Shown here: positions 3,082 to 59,357 of the stretch, in pieces
How positions within the stretch are numbered: the stretch's first letter is position 1
Layout: every line of letters starts with the position of its first letter
Source: an uncultured Chloroflexia bacterium
GTDB taxonomy: Bacteria > Chloroflexota > Limnocylindria > Limnocylindrales > CSP1-4
Length of the DNA: 64,000 bases
Assembly: GCA_963813335.1 (NCBI GenBank)
Contig: CAWEYL010000001.1
Coordinates: forward strand, 32,001-96,000
Direction of reading: 5' to 3'
The notes under the pieces: generated by a model
The model's input: only the letters and a program-made list of their open reading frames with translations
Database searches by the model: none
What the model was told of the DNA's origin: nothing
Position numbers and translations under genes: made by a program

Positions 3082-4278
3082 ATGTCGGATCCGCACTGCC
3101 CGCGGTGCCAGGCGCCGTCCTTCGAGGACACCCGCTACTGCTGGTCCTGCGGCTTCGACCTCGGCGACCCCGAGACCCGGGTGAACGCAGCGGCGATGGC
3201 GCCGCCCGCGACCGACCCCGCGGCCGCCGACCCCGCGGCCACCGCTGCTGCCACTGCCGACACCAGCGGCGCAGCGCCGGGCCGATCCGGGCAGGGGCGG
3301 CTGCTCCGCTACGGCGCGGCCGCACTGGTCGCCGTGGTCGCCATCGGGGTCGTCGCGAATCTGCCCGGCCTGACCGGTCCCGCCACGAGCCCGGCTCCGT
3401 CGGGTGCCGCCGGCGCATCCGCCTCGACCGCGGCCGCGGCCTCACCCGAACCGTGGGCCTCGCTCGCCCCGACGGGCCGCACCACCGCGGCGACCGTGAC
3501 GCGGATCGTCGACGGCGACACGATCGTCGTCGACATCGACGGGACCGAGCAGCGGGTCCGCTACATCGGGATGGACACCCCCGAGACCGTGAAGCCCGAC
3601 ACGCCGGTCCAGCCGATGGGCGAGGAGGCGGCCGCGGCGAACGCCGCCCTCGTCGACGGCCAGGCGGTCGTCCTGGAGCAGGACGTCTCGGACACCGACC
3701 GGTTCGGGCGCCTGCTGCGCGATGTCTGGGTGCGCCGCGACGGCGTCCTCGTCCTGGCCGGGCTGGAGCTGGTCCGCCAGGGCTACGCCCAGATCAGCAC
3801 GTTCCCGCCGGACGTCCGCTACGCCACCATGCTGCTGGCGGCCCAGCGGGAAGCGCAGCGGGACGGGGTGGGACTGTGGGCGTCGGCGGGCGCCGGCGGG
3901 AGCGCGTCGCCGTCGCCGGCCGCGGCGCCCGGTCCCACCCTGCCGACCTTCACCAGCGTGACGCCCGTGATCGTCACGTCCGGGCACAAGTCGAGCTTCC
4001 GCGGGGCGATCGGCATCTACGCGTGGCGCGACGTCCGCTTCGAGGACCCGGCCGTCCGCATGACGTGGGACGTCCATTCGAACCTGGCGTCGGGGTGCCG
4101 CATCGACTGGCGGATCCAGCCGCTGGACGGGCCGGCGGTCCAGGGCTCGGTGAAGGTGAAGGGAAAGGGCCGGACCACCGGGAAGCGCAACCTGGCCGTG
4201 CCGGCGGGGGATGCGCCGCTGGAGGTGCGGAGCACCTGCTCCGAATGGCTGCTCACGATGCAGGGGAAGGGCGCCTAG
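3082..4278 (+). CDS. Thermonuclease family protein with N-terminal zinc ribbon and TM helix
   Basis: CPRC..CWSCG, TM segment, IVDGDT, VRYIGMDTPE, canonical DRFGRLL. Confidence 0.88.
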   Translation: MSDPHCPRCQAPSFEDTRYCWSCGFDLGDPETRVNAAAMAPPATDPAAADPAATAAATADTSGAAPGRSGQGRLLRYGAAALVAVVAIGVVANLPGLTGPATSPAPSGAAGASASTAAAASPEPWASLAPTGRTTAATVTRIVDGDTIVVDIDGTEQRVRYIGMDTPETVKPDTPVQPMGEEAAAANAALVDGQAVVLEQDVSDTDRFGRLLRDVWVRRDGVLVLAGLELVRQGYAQISTFPPDVRYATMLLAAQREAQRDGVGLWASAGAGGSASPSPAAAPGPTLPTFTSVTPVIVTSGHKSSFRGAIGIYAWRDVRFEDPAVRMTWDVHSNLASGCRIDWRIQPLDGPAVQGSVKVKGKGRTTGKRNLAVPAGDAPLEVRSTCSEWLLTMQGKGA

Positions 4279-18913: not shown

Positions 18914-22084
<3,171 letters not shown>

Positions 22085-22248
22085 CTCTGCCTCTCCTCCA
22101 GTTCGCCAGTTGCCGCTGTTCGCGGCAGCTGCCGCGTTCTCCGTGTCGTCGTGCTTGCCGATCATCCTGGGGGCCGCTCACGGACCGGCGGTCTGGGCCG
22201 GCGAGGAGCGTGTCGTGGGCGACGCGGTGAGATCAGGCGACCCCTCGA

Positions 22249-22277
22249 ACGTTACGCCTGTCGCGAGGGTGAGTCAA
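22249..22277 (-). promoter_or_regulatory. Sigma70-type promoter of nrdJ
   Basis: Minus strand TTGACT-N17-TAACGT. Confidence 0.65.
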
Positions 22278-22285
22278 GCCCGAAA

Positions 22286-22334
22286 ACACAAGATGTAGTG
22301 GTACGTTCGGGTGGCCCGCCGCTACATGTGGTGG
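22286..22334. promoter_or_regulatory. Tandem NrdR boxes
   Basis: ACACAAGATGTAGTGG (22286-22301) and CCGCTACATGTGGTGG (22319-22334), 33 bp apart, resembling acaCwAtATaTwGtg. Confidence 0.8.
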
Positions 22335-22350
22335 TTTCCGCGTTTCGTGC

Positions 22351-22478
22351 TCGTCCACGCTCAGCCCACGTTCGGGGCGTGGTTGTCCACGTTCCGGGGG
22401 GTGTCGTGCACCGGCTCGTGCGGGGTTGTGCACGCGGTCGTCCACCGGTTCGCGGCGGTTGTCCACGGGTCGTGCACA
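22351..22478 (+). promoter_or_regulatory. Cluster of seven DnaA-box-like 9-mers
   Basis: T(T/C)GT(C/G)CAC(A/C/G) at 22351, 22383, 22404, 22426, 22438, 22459 and 22470, all in the same orientation. Confidence 0.55.
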
Positions 22479-22600
22479 GTGTCGCATACCGCACAAGTGT
22501 TCGGTTCTGGGGCGTCGAGGGAGGGCTGTGGCGCTGGTCCGCCGCGACCTGCGCAGCCCGCGGCGCCTGGCGCTTCCCGGCACTCCCCGGCCCCCGCCGA

Positions 22601-22785
22601 ACCTGGCACAACGACCATGGGCAGAACGTTATGGCCGATCCAGGCCCGGACCCGCCGGCTTCGAGGCCGGACCGCCAGTCCCGCGAGCACGGGGCGGACC
22701 GGTTCGGTCGCCGTCCAGGTCCGATTCCGGCGCTCCGGACCCTTCGACCTGCCATAACGTTCTGTGGATGAGCGTCATGCCGGGT
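22601..22785 (+). mobile_element. Inverted-arm element A (36-bp arms, 113-bp spacer)
   Basis: ACCTGGCACAACGACCATGGGCAGAACGTTATGGCC ... TGCCATAACGTTCTGTGGATGAGCGTCATGCCGGGT. Confidence 0.75.
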
Positions 22786-22872
22786 CGGGCGCCCGACGGG
22801 ACCACGCCGAGACGCCCCCGCGACGACCACGACCTAGCCTGACGTCCCGCTCGATACAGGAGGCACGGTCCG

Positions 22873-23322
22873 ATGGAGACGATCGCCGAACCCGACCACG
22901 ACGACGAGGCACGTCGCGCCGCGACGATGAAACGGCTCGACTTCCTCATCGACTGGTATCGCCGCCACGCCGAGCAGGAGCGGCTGGTGTACCGGGTGCT
23001 CAAGGTCCTGTCGATCGGGACGGCCGCGGCCGTCTCGGTGTCGGCGGCCGCTTCGAACCCGCAGGTGGTCACCGCCACACTCGGGGCGCTCATCGTCGTG
23101 TTCGAGACCATCCAGTCGGTCTTCCACCTGCACGCCGACTCGGTGTCATACGCGCAGACCAAGGAGCTGCTGATCCGCGAGAAGGCGCTGTATGACGCGA
23201 GGGCCGGGGGGTATGCCCGTTCGTCGAACCCCGATCGGTACCTGGCCGAGCAGGTCGAGCGGATCGCGGCGGCCGAGCTCTCGTCCTGGGTCGACAAGCA
23301 GACCGACGAGAAGGCCGCGTGA
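22873..23322 (+). CDS. DUF4231 / SLATT-like two-TM protein
   Basis: IDWY, two TM helices, Y..TKELLIREKALY..GGY..ERI...E..W; AGGAGG RBS. Confidence 0.75.
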   Translation: METIAEPDHDDEARRAATMKRLDFLIDWYRRHAEQERLVYRVLKVLSIGTAAAVSVSAAASNPQVVTATLGALIVVFETIQSVFHLHADSVSYAQTKELLIREKALYDARAGGYARSSNPDRYLAEQVERIAAAELSSWVDKQTDEKAA

Positions 23323-23436
23323 CCCGCGGTCGACCGAGCGGCGATCGGCGGGTGGCCGGGCGGTGATCCGCGGTTAACCGAGCGGTGAGTGGCAGGTGGC
23401 TGGCCGATACGTGCCGCCAGTCACGATCTCGGTGTC

Positions 23437-24213
23437 GTGGATGATCAGCGGATCGGGTCGGCCATCCGGTCGGTCCGGCTCAAGCGGCGATGGCGCCAGG
23501 CGGACCTTGCGACGGCGGCGGACGTGTCGCGCTCGACGGTCTCGCGGATCGAGCGCGGCCATCTCGACCAGCTGTCGCTCGAGACCCTCCGCACGGTGGC
23601 GCGCGCCCTCGATGTCCGGGTCGATTTCGTCGTTCGATGGCGCGCCGGAGACCTCGACCGACTGCTGAATGCCCGGCACTCGAAGCTGCACGAGTCCGTC
23701 GCCCGGATGTTCCGAGACGACCTGCCGGCCTGGGCACTCCGGCCCGAGACCTCGTTCGCCATCTTCGCGGAGCGCGGCGTCATCGACATCCTTGCGTGGC
23801 ATGCCGGTCGCCGCGCCCTGCTCGTGATCGAGCTCAAGACGGACATCGTCGACGTCAACGAGCTGGTCGGAACGGTCGACCGGAAGCGGCGCCTCGCGGC
23901 ACAGGTCGCGGCGGAGTTCGGCTGGGAGGCGCAGACGGTGTCGGTCTGGGTGATCGTGGCCGACGGCCGGACCAATCGAGCCCGGATCGCGGTCCACAAC
24001 GCCATGCTGCGCGCGGCGTTCCCGACCGATGGACGGTCGATGCGGTCGTGGTTGCGGGACCCGGCCGAAGCGGTCGCAGCCATGTCGACATGGCACGACG
24101 ACCATGGGGAGAACGCAATGGCCGATGCGACACCGGTCAGGCGCGTCCGACGGCCCAAGCCGAAGGCGGTCGGTGTGCGATCACGCACGAAACGGAACGA
24201 CACGATGGCCTGA
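23437..24213 (+). CDS. XRE-family HTH fused to a PD-(D/E)XK restriction-endonuclease-like domain
   Basis: RQADLATAADVSRSTVSRIERG HTH; E..F..GVIDILAW..VIELKT nuclease motif; Arg/Lys-rich tail. Confidence 0.8.
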   Translation: MDDQRIGSAIRSVRLKRRWRQADLATAADVSRSTVSRIERGHLDQLSLETLRTVARALDVRVDFVVRWRAGDLDRLLNARHSKLHESVARMFRDDLPAWALRPETSFAIFAERGVIDILAWHAGRRALLVIELKTDIVDVNELVGTVDRKRRLAAQVAAEFGWEAQTVSVWVIVADGRTNRARIAVHNAMLRAAFPTDGRSMRSWLRDPAEAVAAMSTWHDDHGENAMADATPVRRVRRPKPKAVGVRSRTKRNDTMA

Positions 24214-24284
24214 GTGGCCGTCCCGGGGGTGGTTCCGGGCCAGCGATCGGCCATTACGTTCTGTGGATGAGCGTTGTGCCGGGT
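24088..24284 (+). mobile_element. Inverted-arm element B, overlapping the 3' end of the HTH-nuclease gene (125-bp spacer)
   Basis: ACATGGCACGACGACCATGGGGAGAACGCAATGGCC ... GGCCATTACGTTCTGTGGATGAGCGTTGTGCCGGGT. Confidence 0.75.
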
Positions 24285-24309
24285 CGGCGTCGGCCTGGGC
24301 CGCCGGACC

Positions 24310-25264
24310 CTATCCCGGACCTGGCGCCGCCATCACGCGAGCCAGCACGTCGCTGAACCGGGCCGTCGCCACGCCGATCGACGTGTCCGCGGCCCCGTAG
24401 TAGAGGTGCAGCTGGTCGGCCGGCTCGTCGAGGACCCAGCCGCACGGGAAGACGACCTTGCCGACGTCGCCGATGACCTCGTGCGGCGCCGTCGGGCCGA
24501 ACACCCACTCGTCCATCCGCCGCAGGAGCACGCGGGGATCGGCGAGGTCCAGCAGGGCCAGGCCGACGCGGTAGATCGGGCCGTCGCCGGTCAGGTGCAC
24601 GCCGTGGTACATCAGCAGCCAGCCCTCTTCGGTCTCGAGCGGTGGCGGGCCGAGGCCGATCTTGTTGGCATCCCACCACGCCCCGTCACGCGCCTCGAGG
24701 AGCAGCGCGTGGTCCCCCCAGTGCCGCAGGTCCGGCGACCACGAGAGCCACATGTGGGCGTTGCCGTGCAGCGGCGAGGGCCGATGGATCATCGCCCAGC
24801 GCCCGTCGAAGCGGACCGGGAACAGGGCGGCGTCCTTGTCCTCGGGCGGCATCGCCGGACCCAGGCGCCGCACGCTCCGGAAGTCGCGCGTCACCGCCAG
24901 CGAGACCAGCGGACCGCGGCGGCTGTACGCGGTGTAGGCGATCGCCCACTCCTCGCGCTCGGGGAGCCACGTCAGCCGCGGGTCCTCGCAGCCCCAGATC
25001 TCCTCGGGGTGGTTCGCGGCGTCGGAGCGGAGCAGGGGCTCGGGGTCGAACGTCCAGCCAGTCGATCCCGTCGGCGCTGCGCACGACGTGGAGCTGCGAG
25101 ATGCCGCGCATGTCTTCGACGCGGACGAGCAGGACCGTCTCGTCGCCGACCCGCGCCGCCCCCGGGTTGAAGACCGAGTTCGCTGGGTAGGGGACATCGG
25201 CGACGGTCAGGATCGGATTCGAATCGGACCGGCGGAACAGCATCGCGTCGTCGAGGTGCGTCAC
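24310..25264 (-). CDS. GH130 family glycosidase/phosphorylase (frameshift near 25060)
   Basis: NPIL..VFNPGA..LLVRVED, GCEDPRLT, DKDAALFP, IHRP, VVFPCG, YYGAAD. Confidence 0.88.
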
Positions 25265-26532
25265 CGGGTGGATGTTGGCAGACGTGGACCCATCCCGTGG
25301 CTGCGGGCCATCGATGCCGCGGATCGCTGGCGCATCGAGCCGACCACCGTCGTCGTTCGCGGCGCCGGCCAGTCGGTGTCGGGCGGCTCACCGGGTCCGG
25401 CGACGACCGGACGGGTCACGCCGGCGGCGCTCGCGGCCGCACTGGCCCGCGCCCACCGGATGTGCTCGAGCGCGACCAGCCACATCAGCGTCGATTCGGC
25501 GCCCTGGTTCTGGTTGACCCGGTCGTGTTCGAGGCCATCGAACCCGGCGCCGCGCTGCGGATCCACGACCGGGAGCCCGACATCGTTGTGGCCGAGGAAC
25601 CAGGCGTAGCAGTGTTCCATGGCGGCAACGTAGCGCTCGTCGCCCGACTCGTCGAGCGCAGCTTCGGCCGCGAGCAGGAGGGCGGTCGCCTCGATCGGCT
25701 GCTGGTCGAACCTCGACCGCTCGCCGTCGCGCGGCCACCAGCCGTTGCCGACCGGCGAGAAGTCGTCGTCGCCGCCGGTCTGGATCTCGATGAGCCAGTC
25801 GAGCGCGCGCCGGCCGGTCTCGATCATCGGCGTCGAGCCGAGCCATCGGCCGGCCACGATGAGCGCCCGTGGCGGCAGGCCGTTCTCGTAGGTGAGGATG
25901 GGTTCGGGCCACGGCCAGGCATCGTCGGTGGCGCCCGTGATGAACCTCGAATGGAGTCGGCGCGCCAGCATCCGGTAGGCGCGGTCGGTCAGGTCCGTCG
26001 GGTCCACCCGGATCGCGGCGTCGCAGCCCAGCAGGACTGATGCCTGCGCGCGGATCGCGGTGACGCGGACGGCTTCGGGCAGGGCGTCGCTGAAGAGGGA
26101 GGCAGCGAGCGCGACCATCCGGCCGTCCGGCGCTGTCGCGACGACCGTGCCGAGGGCGAGCATCGCCCGGCCCTGGCTGTCCTCGGAGGGGATGCCGTCG
26201 ACCCACGAGCCGTCGGCGCGCCGGAAGTTGCGGAACGTCCCGGCCGACGGGTCGAAGGCGTCGCGCAGGAACCGGACGTTCTGCCAGGCCCGCTCCGAGA
26301 CCTCGGCCCAGCCGAGCGTCCGGCCGTGGAGCAGGTCGACCTCGAGGGCGCGGGCGACGTCGTCGGTGCAGGAGCCGTGCGCCGGGTCCGGCGCCGAGAA
26401 CGTCGCGTGCTGCGCGATCCCGAACGGGCCGGTCAGCGCATCGAGGTGCTCGCGGCTGACCGGGTAGAGCGGCACGAGTCCGGGGACCGGCGCCGGCGCC
26501 GGCGCCGCCCGCCCGGACCCGGCCTCAGGCAT
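25261..26532 (-). CDS. Glycosyltransferase-associated (alpha/alpha) six-hairpin-like protein
   Basis: GIAQHA..CTDDVARAL, SEDSQGR, WPEPILTYENG, FDQQPIE, NQGAESTL; start overlaps the GT4 stop. Confidence 0.75.
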   Translation of the reverse strand: MPEAGSGRAAPAPAPVPGLVPLYPVSREHLDALTGPFGIAQHATFSAPDPAHGSCTDDVARALEVDLLHGRTLGWAEVSERAWQNVRFLRDAFDPSAGTFRNFRRADGSWVDGIPSEDSQGRAMLALGTVVATAPDGRMVALAASLFSDALPEAVRVTAIRAQASVLLGCDAAIRVDPTDLTDRAYRMLARRLHSRFITGATDDAWPWPEPILTYENGLPPRALIVAGRWLGSTPMIETGRRALDWLIEIQTGGDDDFSPVGNGWWPRDGERSRFDQQPIEATALLLAAEAALDESGDERYVAAMEHCYAWFLGHNDVGLPVVDPQRGAGFDGLEHDRVNQNQGAESTLMWLVALEHIRWARASAAASAAGVTRPVVAGPGEPPDTDWPAPRTTTVVGSMRQRSAASMARSHGMGPRLPTSTR

Positions 26533-27691
26533 TGATGGTCGCGAGCTGCCCGGATCGGGTGACGACCGAGGCCGGCGCGACGACCCGCTCGAAGAGGCGT
26601 CGATACTCGGCGCCGACCTCCGACCAGACCATGTTCCGGCTGTAGGCATAGGCGCGGCGGCCGAGGGCGTCGCGGAGCTCACTGTCGTCCAGCACGCGGT
26701 TCAGCGCCGCCGCGAACTTGGCCGGCGAGCCGGGCGCGACGAGGATGCCGCGGCCGTCGGCCAGCAGCTCGGCCGCATATGCGTACGGGGTCGAGACGAT
26801 CGCCCGGCCCGCGCTCATCGCGTACGACAGCGTGCCCGAGACGATCTGGTCGAGGTTCGGGTAGGGGGTGACGAAGACGTCGGCGGCTTCGAGCCAGCGC
26901 GTCAGTTCGACGTGCCCGACGAACTTGTCGATGAAGCGGACGTGGTCGGCCATCTTGAGGTCCTTGACCCGGGCCACCAGCGCCTCGCGGTACGCCTCGC
27001 CCTCGCGCGCCAGCAGGTCGGGATGAGTCGCGCCGACGATGACGTAGACGGCGTTCGGGTGGGCGGCCACGACCTCGGGCATCGCGTCGATGGCGAGCTC
27101 GTAGCCCTTGCCCTGGCCGAGCAGGCCGAAGCTCAGGATGACGTCGCGCCCGACCAGGCCGACGGCGGCCTTGATCGATTCGGACGGGACCAGCGGCAGC
27201 TCCGGGACGCCATGCGGGATGATGTCGACCCGACTCGGGTCGACCCCGTAGGCGGTCTCGAGGAGCGTCGCGGCGGACCGCGACATGACGACGGTCGCCG
27301 TCGCCGCAGAGGTCAGCTCGATGAGGATCTCGCGCTGGCGACGGGTCGGCTTGCGCAGCACCGTATGGAGCGTCGCGACCGCGGGCATGTCGAGCTCGTG
27401 GATGAAGCCGAGGACCGACTCGCCGTCATCGCCGCCCCAGATCCCGTACTCGTGCTGGATCGACACGACGTCGACGCAGCGCGAGAGCGAGCGGGCCGTC
27501 GAGATGTAGTCGGCGGGCTCGTCGCGGCGGATGCGGTGATGGACTTCCATCGGGTAGGGGACGCCGCGCTCCGGCGAGACGAGCGCGACGACCTCGCGGC
27601 CGCTCGAGGCGCGTGACAGGGCATGCGTGAAGGTCGCGATGCCGCAGTGGCGCGGCGGATACGTGGAAACGAAGGCAGTTCGAACGATGAT
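26525..27691 (-). CDS. GT4 family glycosyltransferase
   Basis: STYPPRHCGIATF, IQHEYGIWGG, IPHG, FGLLGQGKG, SGTLSYAM; frame open to an ATC codon at 27691 behind a GAGAGGA RBS. Confidence 0.88.
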   Translation of the reverse strand: MIVRTAFVSTYPPRHCGIATFTHALSRASSGREVVALVSPERGVPYPMEVHHRIRRDEPADYISTARSLSRCVDVVSIQHEYGIWGGDDGESVLGFIHELDMPAVATLHTVLRKPTRRQREILIELTSAATATVVMSRSAATLLETAYGVDPSRVDIIPHGVPELPLVPSESIKAAVGLVGRDVILSFGLLGQGKGYELAIDAMPEVVAAHPNAVYVIVGATHPDLLAREGEAYREALVARVKDLKMADHVRFIDKFVGHVELTRWLEAADVFVTPYPNLDQIVSGTLSYAMSAGRAIVSTPYAYAAELLADGRGILVAPGSPAKFAAALNRVLDDSELRDALGRRAYAYSRNMVWSEVGAEYRRLFERVVAPASVVTRSGQLATINA

Positions 27692-27808
27692 GGGAGTCCT
27701 CTCGATCGATCGGCGCGGCTCGGACCGGGGTCGGTCGGGCGCGCCGGATATGAGCCGGAGCCGGGGGTGGGTGAGCGGCTCACCCGTGAGTGGGCCGCTC
27801 AGGTCCGG

Positions 27809-28012
27809 TCAGGCGGGGCGCACCTGGGTGGCGCGGGGACCCTTGGGGCTCTGCTCGATCTCGAAGGTGACGTGCTCGCCACCGACGATCCGATCGAAGT
27901 CCATGCCGGCGTCGAGGGCGCCGCGATGGAAGAAGTACTCCTTCTCATCCTCGGCAGCGATGAAGCCGAAGCCGCGATCGGCGATGACTCGTTTGATGGT
28001 TCCGGTGGTCAT
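27809..28012 (-). CDS. Cold-shock domain protein
   Basis: GTIK..RGFGFI..YFFH..KGPRA; GGAGG RBS and about 100-nt leader. Confidence 0.92.
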   Translation of the reverse strand: MTTGTIKRVIADRGFGFIAAEDEKEYFFHRGALDAGMDFDRIVGGEHVTFEIEQSPKGPRATQVRPA

Positions 28013-28180
28013 GTGGACCTCCAACACTTCCCGAACAGGGATGGCAGATCGCACGGTCCGTTCGAAAAGGGGATCGACCACGCGGAGCATCGCCACGCAG
28101 TGCGGCGAGGTCCCCACCGTAGCACAGATGTTCGAGGCTGCCTCGTGAAACGGGCCGGGAGGGTCGCGGCGGGGGCGTCG

Positions 28181-28326
28181 TCGCGGACCCGCGGCGGGGG
28201 TCGCGGACCCGCGGTGGGCGGTCAGGCGCCGGACCCGGCGGTAGGCGCCGGACCCGCGGTGGGCGGTAGGCGCCGGACCCGCGGTGGGCGGTAGGCGCCG
28301 GACCCGGCGGCAGGCGCCGGACCCGG
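28181..28326 (+). repeat. Degenerate GC-rich tandem repeat (GGCGCCGGACCC core)
   Basis: About seven GGACCC-containing units of 19-27 bp running into the left arm of element C. Confidence 0.75.
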
Positions 28327-28515
28327 CACGACGCTCATGGACAGAACGTTATGGCCGGTCTCGCGCGGCCGTCTCGGTCCGCCGCCGATCCGGCTCGACC
28401 CGCTGAGCACGGATCGAGCGTGAGCGGCCGTCGCTGAACCGCGGATCGACTGTGTCGGTCGCTCCGACGGCTCCCGACCGGCCATTACGTTCCCTGGGCG
28501 AGCGTTGTGACAGGT
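28321..28515 (+). mobile_element. Inverted-arm element C (123-bp spacer)
   Basis: ACCCGGCACGACGCTCATGGACAGAACGTTATGGCC ... GGCCATTACGTTCCCTGGGCGAGCGTTGTGACAGGT. Confidence 0.75.
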
Positions 28516-28647
28516 CGGGCCGGGGACGGGTGTCGCGCCAGGGACGGGTGTCGCGCCGCGGGGATCGACCGACTGACGCACGCGGCGCCGCCCTCGGCAT
28601 CCCAGGCACTGCCCGCCGCGGCCGCCTCCGAACTGCCACCCGCGCGA

Positions 28648-28728
28648 ACTTTGTACGGGGTATTTACAAAGTGGCGACGGCTCGCTAGCATCCGGGCCGA
28701 CAGGCTTTGCCAACTCTCTGGACAAAGT
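28648..28728 (+). promoter_or_regulatory. Two palindromic ROK-repressor operators flanking and overlapping a sigma70 promoter
   Basis: ACTTTGTA-N9-TACAAAGT (28648-28672) and GCTTTGCC-N9-GACAAAGT (28704-28728); TTTACA-N17-TAGCAT. Confidence 0.75.
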
Positions 28729-28850
28729 GCGGGAGGGGGCGGACCGGCGACGGGACCCGGCGACGGGACCCGGCCACGGGACCCGCGGCCACGGGACCCG
28801 CGGCACGGACGAGGTCGGCGAGCCACCGTCGGAGGAGGACAGCACGGCGC

Positions 28851-30023
28851 ATGCCACGCATCGAGTACTCCCTCAAGGCGACCCACGCGCAGACCCGTGC
28901 CCACAACGCCAGCCTGGTCCTGCGCGCGCTCTACGACCTCGGCCCGATCTCCCGCGCCGAGATCGCCCGCCTCACGGGCCTCACGAGAACCAGCGTCGGC
29001 GAGCTGGTCGCGGACCTCGAGGCGGAAGGGCTCGCCCGCGAAGTCGGCCGCGGCCCCAGCACCGGCGGCAAGCAGCCGACGCTGGTCGCGCTCGAGAGTG
29101 ACGCCCGGACCGCCATCGTCCTCGACCTCGGCGAGCGCACGTTCTCGGCCGCGCTCGCGAACCTGCGCGGCGAGCTCACCCACCGGCACACCCGCGACCT
29201 CGAGGGGCGCGACGGCGATGCCGCGCTCGCGCTCGTCCACGAGCTGATCGAGGAGGTCTCCCGCGAGGCGACCAGCCCGATCCTCGGCATCGGCGTCGGG
29301 ACCCCGGGCATCGTCGACGCCGGCGGCACGATCCGCTGGGCGGTCAACCTCGAGTGGAAGGACCTGCCGCTCGCCGAGCTGCTCCGCGACCGCTACGGTC
29401 ACCCGACGATCGTCGCCAACGATGCCCGCGCGGCCGCCCTCGCGACGTTCCTGTTCGAGGGCGAGGACCGGCCGGCGAACCTGATCGCGATCAAGGTCGG
29501 GCGCGGCATCGGCAGCGGTCTGGTCCTCGACGGCGACCTCTTCGGCGGCGACGGCGACGGCGCGGGCGAGATCGGCCACATCGTCGTCGAGCCCGACGGC
29601 GCGGCGTGCCACTGCGGCCGCTTCGGCTGCCTCGAGACGGTCGCCTCGGCGCCCGCGATCCTGCGGGCGGCGGTCGCGGCCGGCCTGCCGCCGAGCACCA
29701 CCCTCCCCGAGCTGGCCGCCGCGGCCCGACGCGGCGACGAGCGCGCCCTGGGCGTCACGCGCGCCGCGGGCCGGGCGCTCGGCTCGGCCATCGCCAACCT
29801 CATCGGCATCCTCGACGTCCGCCACATCGTGGTCCACGGGTCGGTGACGGTCCTCGGCGAGCCGTGGCTCGACGCGATCCGCGACGAGGCCACGCGCCGC
29901 AGCCTCGGCCCGCTCGCGCGGGAGACCCGCATCGTCGACGGCGGGACGGGCGAGGACCTGACGCTCGTCGGCGCCTGCGCGCTGCTGCTGACCAGCGAAC
30001 TCGGCCTGACGGTCCAGCGATGA
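28851..30023 (+). CDS. ROK family transcriptional repressor (NagC/XylR-like)
   Basis: GPISRAEIARLTGLT HTH, GEIGH, CHCGRFGCLE. Confidence 0.92.
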   Translation: MPRIEYSLKATHAQTRAHNASLVLRALYDLGPISRAEIARLTGLTRTSVGELVADLEAEGLAREVGRGPSTGGKQPTLVALESDARTAIVLDLGERTFSAALANLRGELTHRHTRDLEGRDGDAALALVHELIEEVSREATSPILGIGVGTPGIVDAGGTIRWAVNLEWKDLPLAELLRDRYGHPTIVANDARAAALATFLFEGEDRPANLIAIKVGRGIGSGLVLDGDLFGGDGDGAGEIGHIVVEPDGAACHCGRFGCLETVASAPAILRAAVAAGLPPSTTLPELAAAARRGDERALGVTRAAGRALGSAIANLIGILDVRHIVVHGSVTVLGEPWLDAIRDEATRRSLGPLARETRIVDGGTGEDLTLVGACALLLTSELGLTVQR

Positions 30024-37141: not shown

Positions 37142-37197
37142 CCGTCCTGGTGGCTGGCGGGCGGTGCCCCGCGCCCGCCCGTGTCCCCCGGCCCGCT

Positions 37198-37383
37198 ACC
37201 CGGCAGAACGACCACGGAGAGAACGCTATGGCCGGTTCTCGGTTCGTCCGGCCGGTCCGACACGGTCGCGGCGCCCCACCCCGGGCACTGTCACGCACGC
37301 TCGAAAGGTCCGGATGGCGGTCACGGCGCGAAGCGGGCGTCACGACCGGCCATTACGTTCTGTGGATGAGCGTTGTGCCAGGT
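37198..37383 (+). mobile_element. Inverted-arm element D (114-bp spacer)
   Basis: ACCCGGCAGAACGACCACGGAGAGAACGCTATGGCC ... GGCCATTACGTTCTGTGGATGAGCGTTGTGCCAGGT. Confidence 0.75.
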
Positions 37384-37457
37384 ACGGGCCGACCCGGGCA
37401 GAGCCGAGGAGCCGAGGGCCGCGGCCCGATCGGTCCGGCGGCAGCCGCCCCTGGGCC

Positions 37458-51037: not shown

Positions 51038-51181
51038 CCCGGCTCGCGGCCGCCTGGCCCGGCCCGGCCCACGCGGCTCCCCGGCCGACGTGGCTCCCCG
51101 GCCAGTGCGGCTTCCCAGCCGACGCGGCTCTCTGGCCGGCCCGCGGCCGTGCCCAGCCCCGATCGCGCCTCCGAGTCGCCG

Positions 51182-51366
51182 ACCTGTCGTAACGACCACC
51201 GACAGAACGTTATGGCCAGTGCGCGTTCCCGCCGGCATGTTCAGCGAGCAGGATCCTGCGCTCCCACGCACGACCCGCGCCACGCACCGGCTGATCGCGG
51301 CCGTCCGGACCCGTGGAGAGATTCGGCAATGGCCATAGCGTTCTGCCCATGAACGTCATGCCGGGT
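51182..51366 (+). mobile_element. Inverted-arm element E (113-bp spacer)
   Basis: ACCTGTCGTAACGACCACCGACAGAACGTTATGGCC ... GGCCATAGCGTTCTGCCCATGAACGTCATGCCGGGT. Confidence 0.75.
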
Positions 51367-51440
51367 CCCCACCGATGAAGGGCCAGCCCCAAGGCGGTCC
51401 GATGTGCCGACCCCCGGGTCGGCCCGCCCGGCGCGCCCCG

Positions 51441-51512
51441 ACCGCGGCCCCGGCCGCGGGCCACCCGCCCCCGCCCACCGCGGCCCCGGCCGCGGGCCAC
51501 CCGCCCCCGCCC
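51441..51512 (+). repeat. 36-bp perfect tandem duplication
   Basis: accgcggccccggccgcgggccacccgcccccgccc twice. Confidence 0.8.
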
Positions 51513-51642
51513 GCCGCGCGGCCCACGCGCGGCGTTCACCCGACGGCAACAGCCCGTTCACGTTCGTTCCGTCGGCCCGTGCTAGCATCGCCGCGGGGCC
51601 CGCGCACGGCCCCGGCCACGGATCCTGGAGGCTTGACGGACC

Positions 51643-58029: not shown

Positions 58030-59204
58030 CTGACGACCACCGAGGGGGAGTCGCTCGGCGCGGCGTGCGAGGTGATCACCGCCGGGGGCGCGTCCTCGGT
58101 CGGGATGAGGTCCGGGGCCACCGTCATGCCGGTCTCGGCGTCGAACAGGTGGACCTTGGTGAGCGGCAGCACGAGGTTGACGATGTCGCCCGGCCGGACG
58201 CGATGCTCCGAGTCGACGATCGCCACGATGTCCTTGTCGGCGGCGTTGAGGTGGAGCAGCTCCTCGTTGCCGAGGTACTCCACGACGTCGGCCCGGGCGC
58301 GGAACGAGCCGACATCGCTGGCCGGATCGCCGATGTCGAGGTGCTCCGGGCGGAACCCTGCGACGAGCGAGCGACCGGGCACGACCGCGGCGTCCTTGTA
58401 CTGCCTGGGCAGCGGGATCGACCAGTCGCCGGGGCCGACGAGGCGCGAGCTGCCGGTCGAGTTGTCGAGCGTGACGTCGACGAAGTTCATCGACGGGCTG
58501 CCGATGAAGCCGGCGACGAAGCGGTTGATCGGGGTGTCGTAGAGGGTCTGCGGGGTGCCGACCTGCTGGAGGATGCCCTCGTTCATGACCGCGATCCGCG
58601 AGCCCATCGTCATGGCCTCGATCTGGTCGTGGGTGACGTAGACCATGGTGGTCCCGAGGCGCTGGTGGAGGCGGGCGATCTCGGCGCGGGTCTGCACGCG
58701 CAGCTTGGCGTCGAGGTTGGACAGCGGCTCGTCCATGAGGAACACGGCCGGTTCGCGGACGATGGCGCGACCGAGCGCGACGCGCTGGCGCTGGCCGCCG
58801 GAGAGCTCCTTCGGCTTGCGGTCGAGGAGCTTGTCGAGCTGGATGGTCTCGGCGGCTTCCTTGACGCGGCGCTCGATGTCGGCCTTGGGGACCTTGCGCA
58901 GCTTGAGCCCGAAGGCGAGGTTGTCGCGCACCGACATGTGCGGGTAGAGCGCGTAGCTCTGGAAGACCATCGCGATGTCGCGATCCTTGGGCGGGACGTC
59001 GTTGACGACGCGGTCGCCGATGCGGAGGGTGCCGGTCGTGATCTCCTCGAGCCCGGCGATCATCCGCAGGCTGGTGGTCTTCCCGCAGCCCGATGGCCCG
59101 ACCAGGACCATGAATTCGCCGTCGCCGATCTCGAGGTTCAGGTCCGAGACGGCGTGGAAGTCGCCGTACATCTTGTTGACGTTCTCGAACGTCACGGTCG
59201 CCAT
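58026..59204 (-). CDS. Sugar ABC transporter ATP-binding protein (MsmX/UgpC-like)
   Basis: GPSGCGKTT, LSGGQRQRVALGRA, DEPLSNLDAKLR. Confidence 0.95.
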   Translation of the reverse strand: MATVTFENVNKMYGDFHAVSDLNLEIGDGEFMVLVGPSGCGKTTSLRMIAGLEEITTGTLRIGDRVVNDVPPKDRDIAMVFQSYALYPHMSVRDNLAFGLKLRKVPKADIERRVKEAAETIQLDKLLDRKPKELSGGQRQRVALGRAIVREPAVFLMDEPLSNLDAKLRVQTRAEIARLHQRLGTTMVYVTHDQIEAMTMGSRIAVMNEGILQQVGTPQTLYDTPINRFVAGFIGSPSMNFVDVTLDNSTGSSRLVGPGDWSIPLPRQYKDAAVVPGRSLVAGFRPEHLDIGDPASDVGSFRARADVVEYLGNEELLHLNAADKDIVAIVDSEHRVRPGDIVNLVLPLTKVHLFDAETGMTVAPDLIPTEDAPPAVITSHAAPSDSPSVVVS

Positions 59205-59357
59205 GGCACAACCTCCATCCTGACCGTCATCGCGGGTCCATGCATCCGGCCACCGAAGTGGCGTGGACGGACCCCGTACGTGGCGGCGCAGGGCCCTTGC
59301 ATCGTAGGGTCGCGGACCCCTGCCCGCAACCCCGGAATGCGCCGTCCGCGTCGAAGC

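Follow-up and report, generated by a model that had tools for sequence, protein, structure and literature searches.

The window analysed here is a 64,000-nt stretch from an uncultured bacterium of the class Limnocylindria (phylum Chloroflexota; GenBank assembly GCA_963813335.1, contig CAWEYL010000001.1, positions 32,001–96,000 of the forward strand), and it corresponds to C1:32001–96000 of the genome designated G000. The G000 assembly comprised 2.54 Mb in seven contigs, with a G+C content of 72% and a completeness of 81%. The subject is a gene for an XRE-family helix-turn-helix (HTH) protein with a predicted NucS-like PD-(D/E)XK nuclease domain, together with a family of dispersed elements built of two inverted arms, one copy of which (element B) overlaps the 3′ end of this gene. 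The gene was located at 23437..24213 on the forward strand and encoded 258 amino acids, from a GTG start at 23437, equivalent to the MDDQR start used by most homologues, to a TGA stop at 24211–24213. Its frame read ...STWHDDHGENAMAD..., and codons 24088–24123 encoded TWHDDHGENAMA. Element B spanned 24084..24288. Its left arm (24084..24127, forward strand, ACGACC-type) provided the codons for residues ~217–231 of the gene tail; the central 8-mer CACGCACG (24181..24188, forward strand) was at the element midpoint and within the reading frame; and the right arm (24245..24288, reverse strand, ACGCTC-type) was found past the stop codon, with the 3′ end of a convergent GH130 gene 22 nt away. The arrangement given in the initial annotation, with the left arm in frame in the 3′ end of the gene, the stop codon in the spacer and the right arm after it, was therefore borne out. 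Metagenome contigs from four DNA runs over 21500–29500 were short and ended at repeats, and their joints were short-sided or came from other copies.

Five copies of the element (A–E) were present in the window, and the four besides B carried no gene, as had also been recognized at first. Element A (22597..22789, forward strand; arms at 22597–22640 and 22746–22789) was located between nrdJ, on the reverse strand, and the SLATT and XRE genes. Element C (28317..28519, reverse strand) had a glycosyltransferase gene on one side and a ROK-family gene on the other, and was preceded by 69-nt GC-rich tandem repeats. Element D was at 37194..37387 (forward strand), and element E (51178..51370, forward strand) separated an M23 peptidase gene from a nucleotidyl-transferase gene at a site that was empty in relatives. 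GC-rich tandem repeats directly flanked both C (28193–28325, period ~69 nt) and E (51040–51170 and 51400–51560).

An nhmmer profile built from the ten window arms (threshold reached, E ≤0.028) retrieved 37 arms in G000, with E-values from 2e-13 to 0.028, which made up 18 pairs and one lone arm. This number was far above chance. Each element was ~200 nt long, with two inverted arms of ~44 nt that enclosed a spacer; an 8-mer marked its midpoint. The mean column identity of the arms was 80% over all 37, and the spacer measured 100–128 nt in every one of the 18 pairs, its sequence not being conserved. A single arm was in itself an imperfect palindrome, GGCAYAACG-N13-CGTTATGGCC, in which seven internal pairs were formed in 90.9% of the cells almost without covariation; it was therefore taken as a conserved palindrome and not as evidence of RNA structure. 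The elements also had a polarity. When the copies were oriented by MAFFT, (A/T)GACC followed the conserved AAC in 14 of the 18 left arms and in none of the right arms, and 12 of the 18 right arms had GAGCGT on the oriented strand, that is, ACGCTC in the reverse complement. The arm in the gene tail was of the ACGACC type. The central 8-mer, CACGC[AT]C[GA], was found at a relative position of 0.46–0.51 in 8/18 copies and on the opposite strand in three more; in 1000 shuffles of the spacers, its mean count was 0.22 per set and its highest was three. The two arms of an element could pair over ~40 nt at 71–88% complementarity. Six of the 18 copies were located between convergent gene ends and many were at gene 3′ ends, and both orientations relative to the flanking genes occurred. 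In counts of 16-mers over G000, the flanks of the gene reached maxima of 8 and 5 and the gene body 3; a count of 8 was reached at 390 of 2.54 million positions.

Another palindromic 16-mer family was also present in G000, ATGCAGCCGAGGTGCA with the complement ATGCACCTCGGCTGCA, which had a count of 11 on both strands, above any arm 16-mer. One example, at C1:173255, was between the element located between Ku and LigD and the LigD gene itself. This family could be a separate regulatory or REP-like (repetitive extragenic palindromic) site.

The protein encoded at 23437..24213 comprised an HTH domain (residues 1–58), a nuclease-fold domain (72–219) and a disordered tail (220–258) with a conserved PVRRVRR. 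HTH_3 was the sole family returned by the Pfam scan (E 2.5e-13, 50.3 bits against a cut-off of 23), which assigned the N-terminal domain to the XRE family; the nuclease domain had no Pfam family. The NCBIfam and PADLOC scans gave essentially HTH matches, and the only non-HTH match from PADLOC was a weak one to PDC-S02 (E 6.4e-4, residues 112–185). The AlphaFold2 model, for which 118 homologues served as input, had a predicted local distance difference test (pLDDT) score of 86 and became disordered after W219, with a pLDDT of 40–59. In the model, a helix (72–95) was followed by strands (99–134), a second helix (140–159) and a further strand (167–175). With this alpha-beta-beta-beta-alpha-beta core, acidic residues and an ExK motif, the modelled C-terminal domain has the defining features of the PD-(D/E)XK superfamily. 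The same 118 homologues were used for residue conservation: E132, K134, R113 and G114 were invariant, and E112 and D117 nearly so. The XRE HTH and the nuclease motif proposed in the initial annotation both stood.

Structural comparison of residues 80–222 with VIA-align returned NucS (2vld_B; Z 9.0, root-mean-square deviation 3.2, 105 residues aligned), followed by Can2 (7bdv, Z 8.7), AF1548 (Z 8.7) and Card1 (6wxw, Z 8.2), and the HTH part matched HipB and C.AhdI (Z 11). Foldseek returned the Shedu nuclease SduA, which was the best match for the whole model (E 2.2e-5), as well as BstEII and PfoI. The sequence search of solved structures matched the HTH part only and found no solved nuclease, and in the ESM Atlas the nuclease domain matched only unnamed Chloroflexota clusters. 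A homodimer was predicted with a score of 0.43, compared with 0.01 for the best control, with contacts agreeing at ≥66% between runs and a pLDDT of ≥74; among structures already solved, 20 of 30 homodimers and one of 23 monomers attained the mark set for this score. The predicted interface involved the HTH and the strand at 59–69, and this pass may reflect likeness to XRE dimers that had already been solved.

The tail that carries the left arm followed a pattern shared by the family. In 22 aligned homologues (to 63% identity), it read LSxW, then 10–14 variable residues, then PVRRVR, with W219 nearly invariant and R235 and R236 invariant. The left arm started at the W codon and spanned the variable linker, so there was no insertion breaking or extending the gene. 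The alignment thus indicated that the tail is native coding sequence and not foreign DNA. The initial annotation had regarded the arm as physically fused to the gene; this had to be corrected, as W219 and the P-V-R-R-V-R motif on either side are conserved in the family.

The homologues belonged to the Chloroflexota, class Limnocylindria. In 34 of 80 homologue loci the gene was divergent to an adjoining nrdJ, and G000 had one close copy of the gene and one paralogue with 43% identity. By its distribution, the gene appears to be mostly single-copy, housekeeping-like and vertically kept. It had been proposed as an autonomous driver, but in the main clade it was single-copy and syntenic with nrdJ, and thus behaves as a domesticated resident of the RAYT type (REP-associated tyrosine transposase) and not as a hopping transposon. 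The nrdJ gene itself (class II ribonucleotide reductase, 19288–22165, reverse strand) was divided in G000 into two overlapping open reading frames, 19288–21351 and 21047–22165. Its N- and C-terminal matches shared one frame in loci L006 and L007, and the frameshift was seen in the G000 assembly only; an indel in the assembly is the probable cause of the split. A SLATT gene (22873..23322, forward strand; NCBIfam SLATT_1, E 3.6e-21; Pfam DUF4231, E 2.4e-12) separated element A from the XRE gene. A tblastn search found no such gene in 80 homologue loci nor in L121–L130, so that it appears to be a membrane effector from a conflict system that was inserted in this lineage specifically.

The arms differed from genome to genome. 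A model of the G000 arms alone (R1) retrieved the 37 arms of G000 but, the arms being genome-specific, no more than a few weak matches in 13 of the 60 other genomes; a pan-genus model (R2) took its place. With R2, paired elements were found at ~9–10 places in G012, seven in G035, five in G019 and two in G030. The arm consensus was ...ACG(A/C)(C/T)CA...CAGAACGTTATGGCC in G000, ...ACGTGCA...GGACCGTTATGGCC in G012, ...CTTGCC...GGACCGTTATGGCC in G035 and ...CCACCCGAGGAACGT... in G019. Similarity among dispersed arms was 0.68–0.78 within a genome and 0.56–0.69 between genomes. In three of the four genomes tested, the tail arm was nearest to the dispersed arms of its own genome (own vs. others: G000, 0.78 vs. 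0.61–0.69; G012, 0.73 vs. 0.60–0.69; G035, 0.70 vs. 0.50–0.65), and the tail arm of G019 gave a tie (0.641 with its own arms and 0.647 with those of G000).

Paralogues showed the same relationship. Five homologues of the gene were present in G012, and one of them, L130 (37% identical), had a quite different arm, CTGACAAACGCTCACCAGGCGAGCGCTCGTCAG, of which one copy was located 425 nt upstream of the start and a second covered the tail, from 104 nt before the stop. A BLAST search of G012 with the L130 tail element gave 52 matches at E ≤1, at no fewer than 15 separate loci. Dispersed cognates of tail elements were also found in the respective genomes of G068 (at least 10 loci), G067 (~6), G002 (two) and G001 (one), so that all six tail elements queried (these four, the second family of G012 and that of G000) had them. 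The 43%-identical paralogue of G000 (L002, C3:152746–153430) had the ‘LFLSD’ tail type and a frameshift near residue 185. Its tail matched the family-2 arm of G012 at 77%, and a further arm was located at C1:1147333 (about two arm matches). The frameshifts in L002 and nrdJ may both be assembly errors, since nrdJ was shifted in this assembly only. Taken at the sequence level, these comparisons indicated that the repeat sequence is particular to each gene lineage and that the arms and the gene tail change in concert. The expectation that arm sequence tracks the gene lineage was thus largely upheld, both by the genome-specific consensus sequences and by the separate arm family of L130.

The expectation that homologues end in a cognate inverted-arm element was also largely upheld, for many of them. 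In an ungapped search for the best inverted repeat (left arm starting 120–20 nt before the stop, gap 80–180 nt), 11 of 76 loci scored ≥14 compared with 6 of 456 control windows, and 19 of 76 scored ≥12 compared with 17 of 456 (Mann–Whitney p 2e-7). In the gapped test, in which each locus was compared with its own controls, 31/73 loci exceeded all of them (Wilcoxon p 5e-7). The left arms started 34–114 nt before the stop, mostly 63–97 nt, and their sequences varied by lineage. A copy of the element upstream of the gene was found in G000, G012, G019 and G035.

Copies of the element have been gained where relatives have empty sites. The M23 peptidase and nucleotidyl-transferase genes that flank element E were separated by 34–199 nt in at least 30 relatives and by ~600 nt in G000. 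At the site of the G000 copy C3:55416, five of the seven relatives that had both flanks contained no insert, and the other two carried other inserts. The gap between Ku and LigD was ≤60 nt in at least 10 relatives, and G000 and G023 shared a gene-less element there (arms in G023 at C5:102339 and 102457). Two copies were found at orthologous sites in different species (G000 C7:10779 and G035 C6:111425; G000 C3:394390 and G012 C10:246336), and they retained only the arms and the central motif, with spacers that could not be aligned.

The gene itself has decayed in one relative. In G030 (locus L157, C3:522700–528900, ~2490–2780), a gene remnant beside nrdJ retained residues ~19–31 and 196–219, and the remnants were separated by a duplicated copy of the left part of the upstream element. 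All four strong arms of G030 were at this gene locus, with one weak match (E 0.08) 22 kb away. In two further genomes, tandem left arms on the same strand preceded a single right arm: G008 (C30:40677–41097, L158) and G020 (C179:8378–8500, L155), the latter with two identical arms 81 nt apart. Paralogous HTH-nuclease genes (36–39% identity) were situated exactly between Ku and LigD in G019 (C1:1700877–1701521) and G037 (C58:4922–5626).

REPINs are reportedly doublets of REP sequences that occur with a RAYT, a relationship attributed to Bertels and Rainey in 2011. We propose that the gene and the elements form a partnership of a similar kind, driven by the HTH-PD-(D/E)XK nuclease, with binding, cutting and mobilization of the elements as its putative activities; we give this proposal about an even chance. 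According to it, a resident and mostly single-copy gene would be embedded in its own repeats, one over the 3′ coding tail and, in this genus, one upstream. HTH dimers would bind the palindromic arms, and two dimers could bring the arms of one element together, the fixed spacing of 100–128 nt permitting such pairing. The NucS-like domains would then cut at or near the element, and repair or transposition of the cut element might give rise to new copies at intergenic sites. Sequence copied between existing elements would keep all arms of a genome alike, the arm of the gene included.

Several observations weighed against this proposal. At the sensitivity used, 42/73 homologue loci had no tail repeat above the controls, and a cognate upstream arm exceeded the controls in 8/73 loci only (Wilcoxon p 0.16). 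The block at element E that was found only in G000 measured ~480–500 nt, more than the 200-nt element by itself, and included GC-rich tandem repeats as well. At the gained copies, where filled and empty flanks could not be closely aligned, neither a target-site duplication nor a clean boundary was visible, and the two copies shared across species implied that many copies are old and stable. Folding gave nothing for pairing between arms either: RNAalifold returned only local arm hairpins and no long-range helix, with compensatory change at none of the 18 predicted pairs, and in the arm alignment the left and right arms of one element showed no compensatory changes. In a census of 40 genomes of the genus besides G000 (gene at ≥49% identity, arms by R2), three or more arms were found in 7 of 19 genomes with the gene and in 3 of 21 without it. 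Those without it were G008, where the arms were at one locus, G020, with 11 arms at 65% completeness, and G066. The census is weak, because R2 favors G000-like arms and the genomes are incomplete, and this bias makes absences uncertain both ways. The initial annotation had taken homologues without arms and arm-bearing genomes without the gene as signs of a chance insertion, and both were encountered in part, at the 42 loci and in these three genomes. To our knowledge, there is no precedent for a PD-(D/E)XK transposase acting on such elements.

The first alternative, to which we give a minor but real share of the probability, is that the protein recognizes specific DNA sites, as a transcription factor or as a chromosome organizer resembling ParB/parS. 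The arms, the one in its own gene included, would be its binding sites, the nuclease fold would be a sensor or oligomerization module, and the sites would arise and be homogenized by ordinary recombination. Arms of operator type, palindromic in 90.9% of the cells with almost no covariation, fit well with this explanation, as do the predicted HTH dimerization, the conservation of arms beside unalignable spacers in orthologous copies and the presence of two copies at orthologous sites across species. In Bacillus subtilis, spo0J has a parS site within its own coding sequence. Several G000 copies also had DNA-repair genes beside them, namely nrdJ, Ku, LigD and LigD-PrimPol; UvrD and PolX were found within ~1–1.3 kb. 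However, the six G000 copies between convergent gene ends and the unrelated housekeeping genes that neighbored the copies in G012, G019 and G035 would be difficult to reconcile with it. The copy number ranged from ~2 to 18 per genome, sites were empty in most relatives, and the motif differed among species of one genus, which is unusual for a regulon. The contig with dnaA had no copies, and the catalytic residues were invariant or nearly so. A DNA-damage regulon was considered as the main explanation and rejected on account of the unrelated neighbors in G012, G019 and G035 and the many copies between convergent genes. Origin-proximal clustering of the parS type was also rejected; the dnaA contig (C2) contained no element, and the GC skew was too weak to place the origin.

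Less probable still, and in our view a poor prospect, are ordinary MITEs (miniature transposable elements with inverted repeats) or passive repeats that recombination or an unseen, unrelated transposase had moved, in which case an insertion accepted by the disordered linker would account for the overlap with the gene tail, and the elements would have no functional tie to the protein. Past W219, the tail is predicted to be disordered and was variable, and could tolerate foreign sequence; G000 is only 81% complete; and no tail repeat was detectable at 42 of the 73 homologue loci. The recurrence of the overlap argues against it, since it began at the W219 codon in lineages with quite different arms and appeared again in a 37%-identical paralogue with an arm family of its own. 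Arm pairs with a spacing like that of an insertion sequence (IS) were limited in G000 to A–B, around the gene, and no Y1/RAYT transposase (PF01797) was found in this genome at its 81% completeness, with a control search that matched 6 of 14 reference genomes.

We consider it improbable to a slightly greater degree that the element acts as RNA, i.e., as a structured 3′ untranslated region, terminator, stabilizer or small RNA in which a long, imperfect hairpin would arise from the arms, as has been suggested for REP sequences. Many copies were at gene 3′ ends and the arms were complementary enough to pair over ~40 nt, but the Rfam covariance models matched none of the five window elements and gave only chance-level matches in 22500–24400. 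The missing long-range helix, the lack of covariation between the arms of one element and the occurrence of both orientations relative to flanking genes are also unfavorable. A selfish or defence nuclease (a homing endonuclease or Shedu-like), for which the repeats would be self-marks or cleavage or homing sites spreading the gene, is very improbable: SduA was the best whole-model match, a SLATT gene adjoins the gene in G000 and paralogues occupied variable sites, including those between Ku and LigD in G019 and G037, but PADLOC found only the HTH and the weak PDC-S02 match, the main-clade gene was syntenic and not multi-copy, and no SLATT gene was found in the other loci searched.

Two other features were seen in the window. 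A malK-III RNA (Rfam RF03009, 84.5 bits, E 7.9e-18) was located at 59202–59293 on the reverse strand. A 300-nt stretch occurred three times (642–941, 2218–2517 and 3451–3750); two of these, 1576 nt apart, were 100% identical and the third was 73% identical, which suggests a recent tandem gene duplication.

If the proposed partnership is correct, the replicator/caretaker lifestyle would have evolved more than once, with an unrelated enzyme class. Tentatively, and with less than even confidence, we speculated that it represents a second, independently evolved class of ‘replicator plus caretaker,’ in which a domesticated NucS-like nuclease copies and homogenizes bipartite palindromic elements, one copy in its own frame makes the enzyme and the repeat inseparable, and several pairs of different specificity coexist per genome throughout a class of Chloroflexota that are abundant in soil and freshwater. 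The partnership, if real, would further supply an HTH-guided, sequence-specific nuclease whose target is long (~34–44 bp) and evolvable, in several natural specificities, and a clean case of a disordered protein tail over which a function at the DNA level has been written. An uncharacterized, widespread protein family of the Limnocylindria, a class that is represented almost solely by metagenomes, would thereby be explained. The literature search returned no paper that tied an HTH or PD-(D/E)XK protein to dispersed repeats, nor one on repeats in Limnocylindria; in the passages searched of the RepRanger paper (PMC12306157), three other Chloroflexota genomes appeared, in a table only.

Compared with known systems, the likeness was partial in each case. 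The nuclease fold of residues ~80–222 and its E...D...ExK residues resembled those of NucS/EndoMS and Can2/Card1, but here an XRE HTH replaces the N-terminal domain of NucS or the CARF domain. The arms resembled integron attC sites, as these are generally described, in their imperfect inversion, in the asymmetry that gives them polarity and in their variable center. However, the R″/R′ core motifs appeared to be absent from the arms, the copies were dispersed and not arrayed, and no integrase was among the Pfam-named neighboring genes. As with ParB and the parS sites familiar from other bacteria, a cognate palindromic site was found in the protein's own coding sequence with a handful elsewhere in the chromosome; unlike them, there was no ParB fold and no clustering at the dnaA contig, the motif varied within the genus, and sites were gained and lost. 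MITEs are likewise non-coding, dispersed elements of ~200 nt with inverted terminal arms, gained at sites empty in relatives, and the gene, bracketed by two elements, looks like an IS whose ends are complex. However, only the arms and the central 8-mer were conserved between the copies described here and the interior was not, the linked gene was syntenic, not multi-copy and not a DDE, serine or tyrosine transposase, and no target-site duplication was seen to the extent that the flanks could be aligned.

The closest likeness in overall organization was to REPIN/RAYT systems. In the account by Bertels et al. (2017; PMC5581495), RAYT genes are mostly single-copy, housekeeping-like and vertically kept, and are flanked by their associated repeats; each RAYT lineage has its own repeat sequence, and high-frequency 16-mers occur in the gene flanks. 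The differences lie in the enzyme and in the element. RAYTs are defined as HUH/Y1 enzymes of the IS200 type, whereas the protein described here combines an XRE HTH with a NucS-like PD-(D/E)XK domain; one repeat overlaps its coding tail; the element is ~200 nt long and built of two palindromic arms of 44 bp around a long spacer, compared with REP hairpins of ~25 nt; and the copy number is low (2–18). Both systems nevertheless have a resident, mostly single-copy gene that is flanked by its own short inverted-repeat elements, which are dispersed in intergenic positions and are specific to the lineage or paralogue, with a 16-mer count here of 8 in the flank vs. 3 in the gene body.

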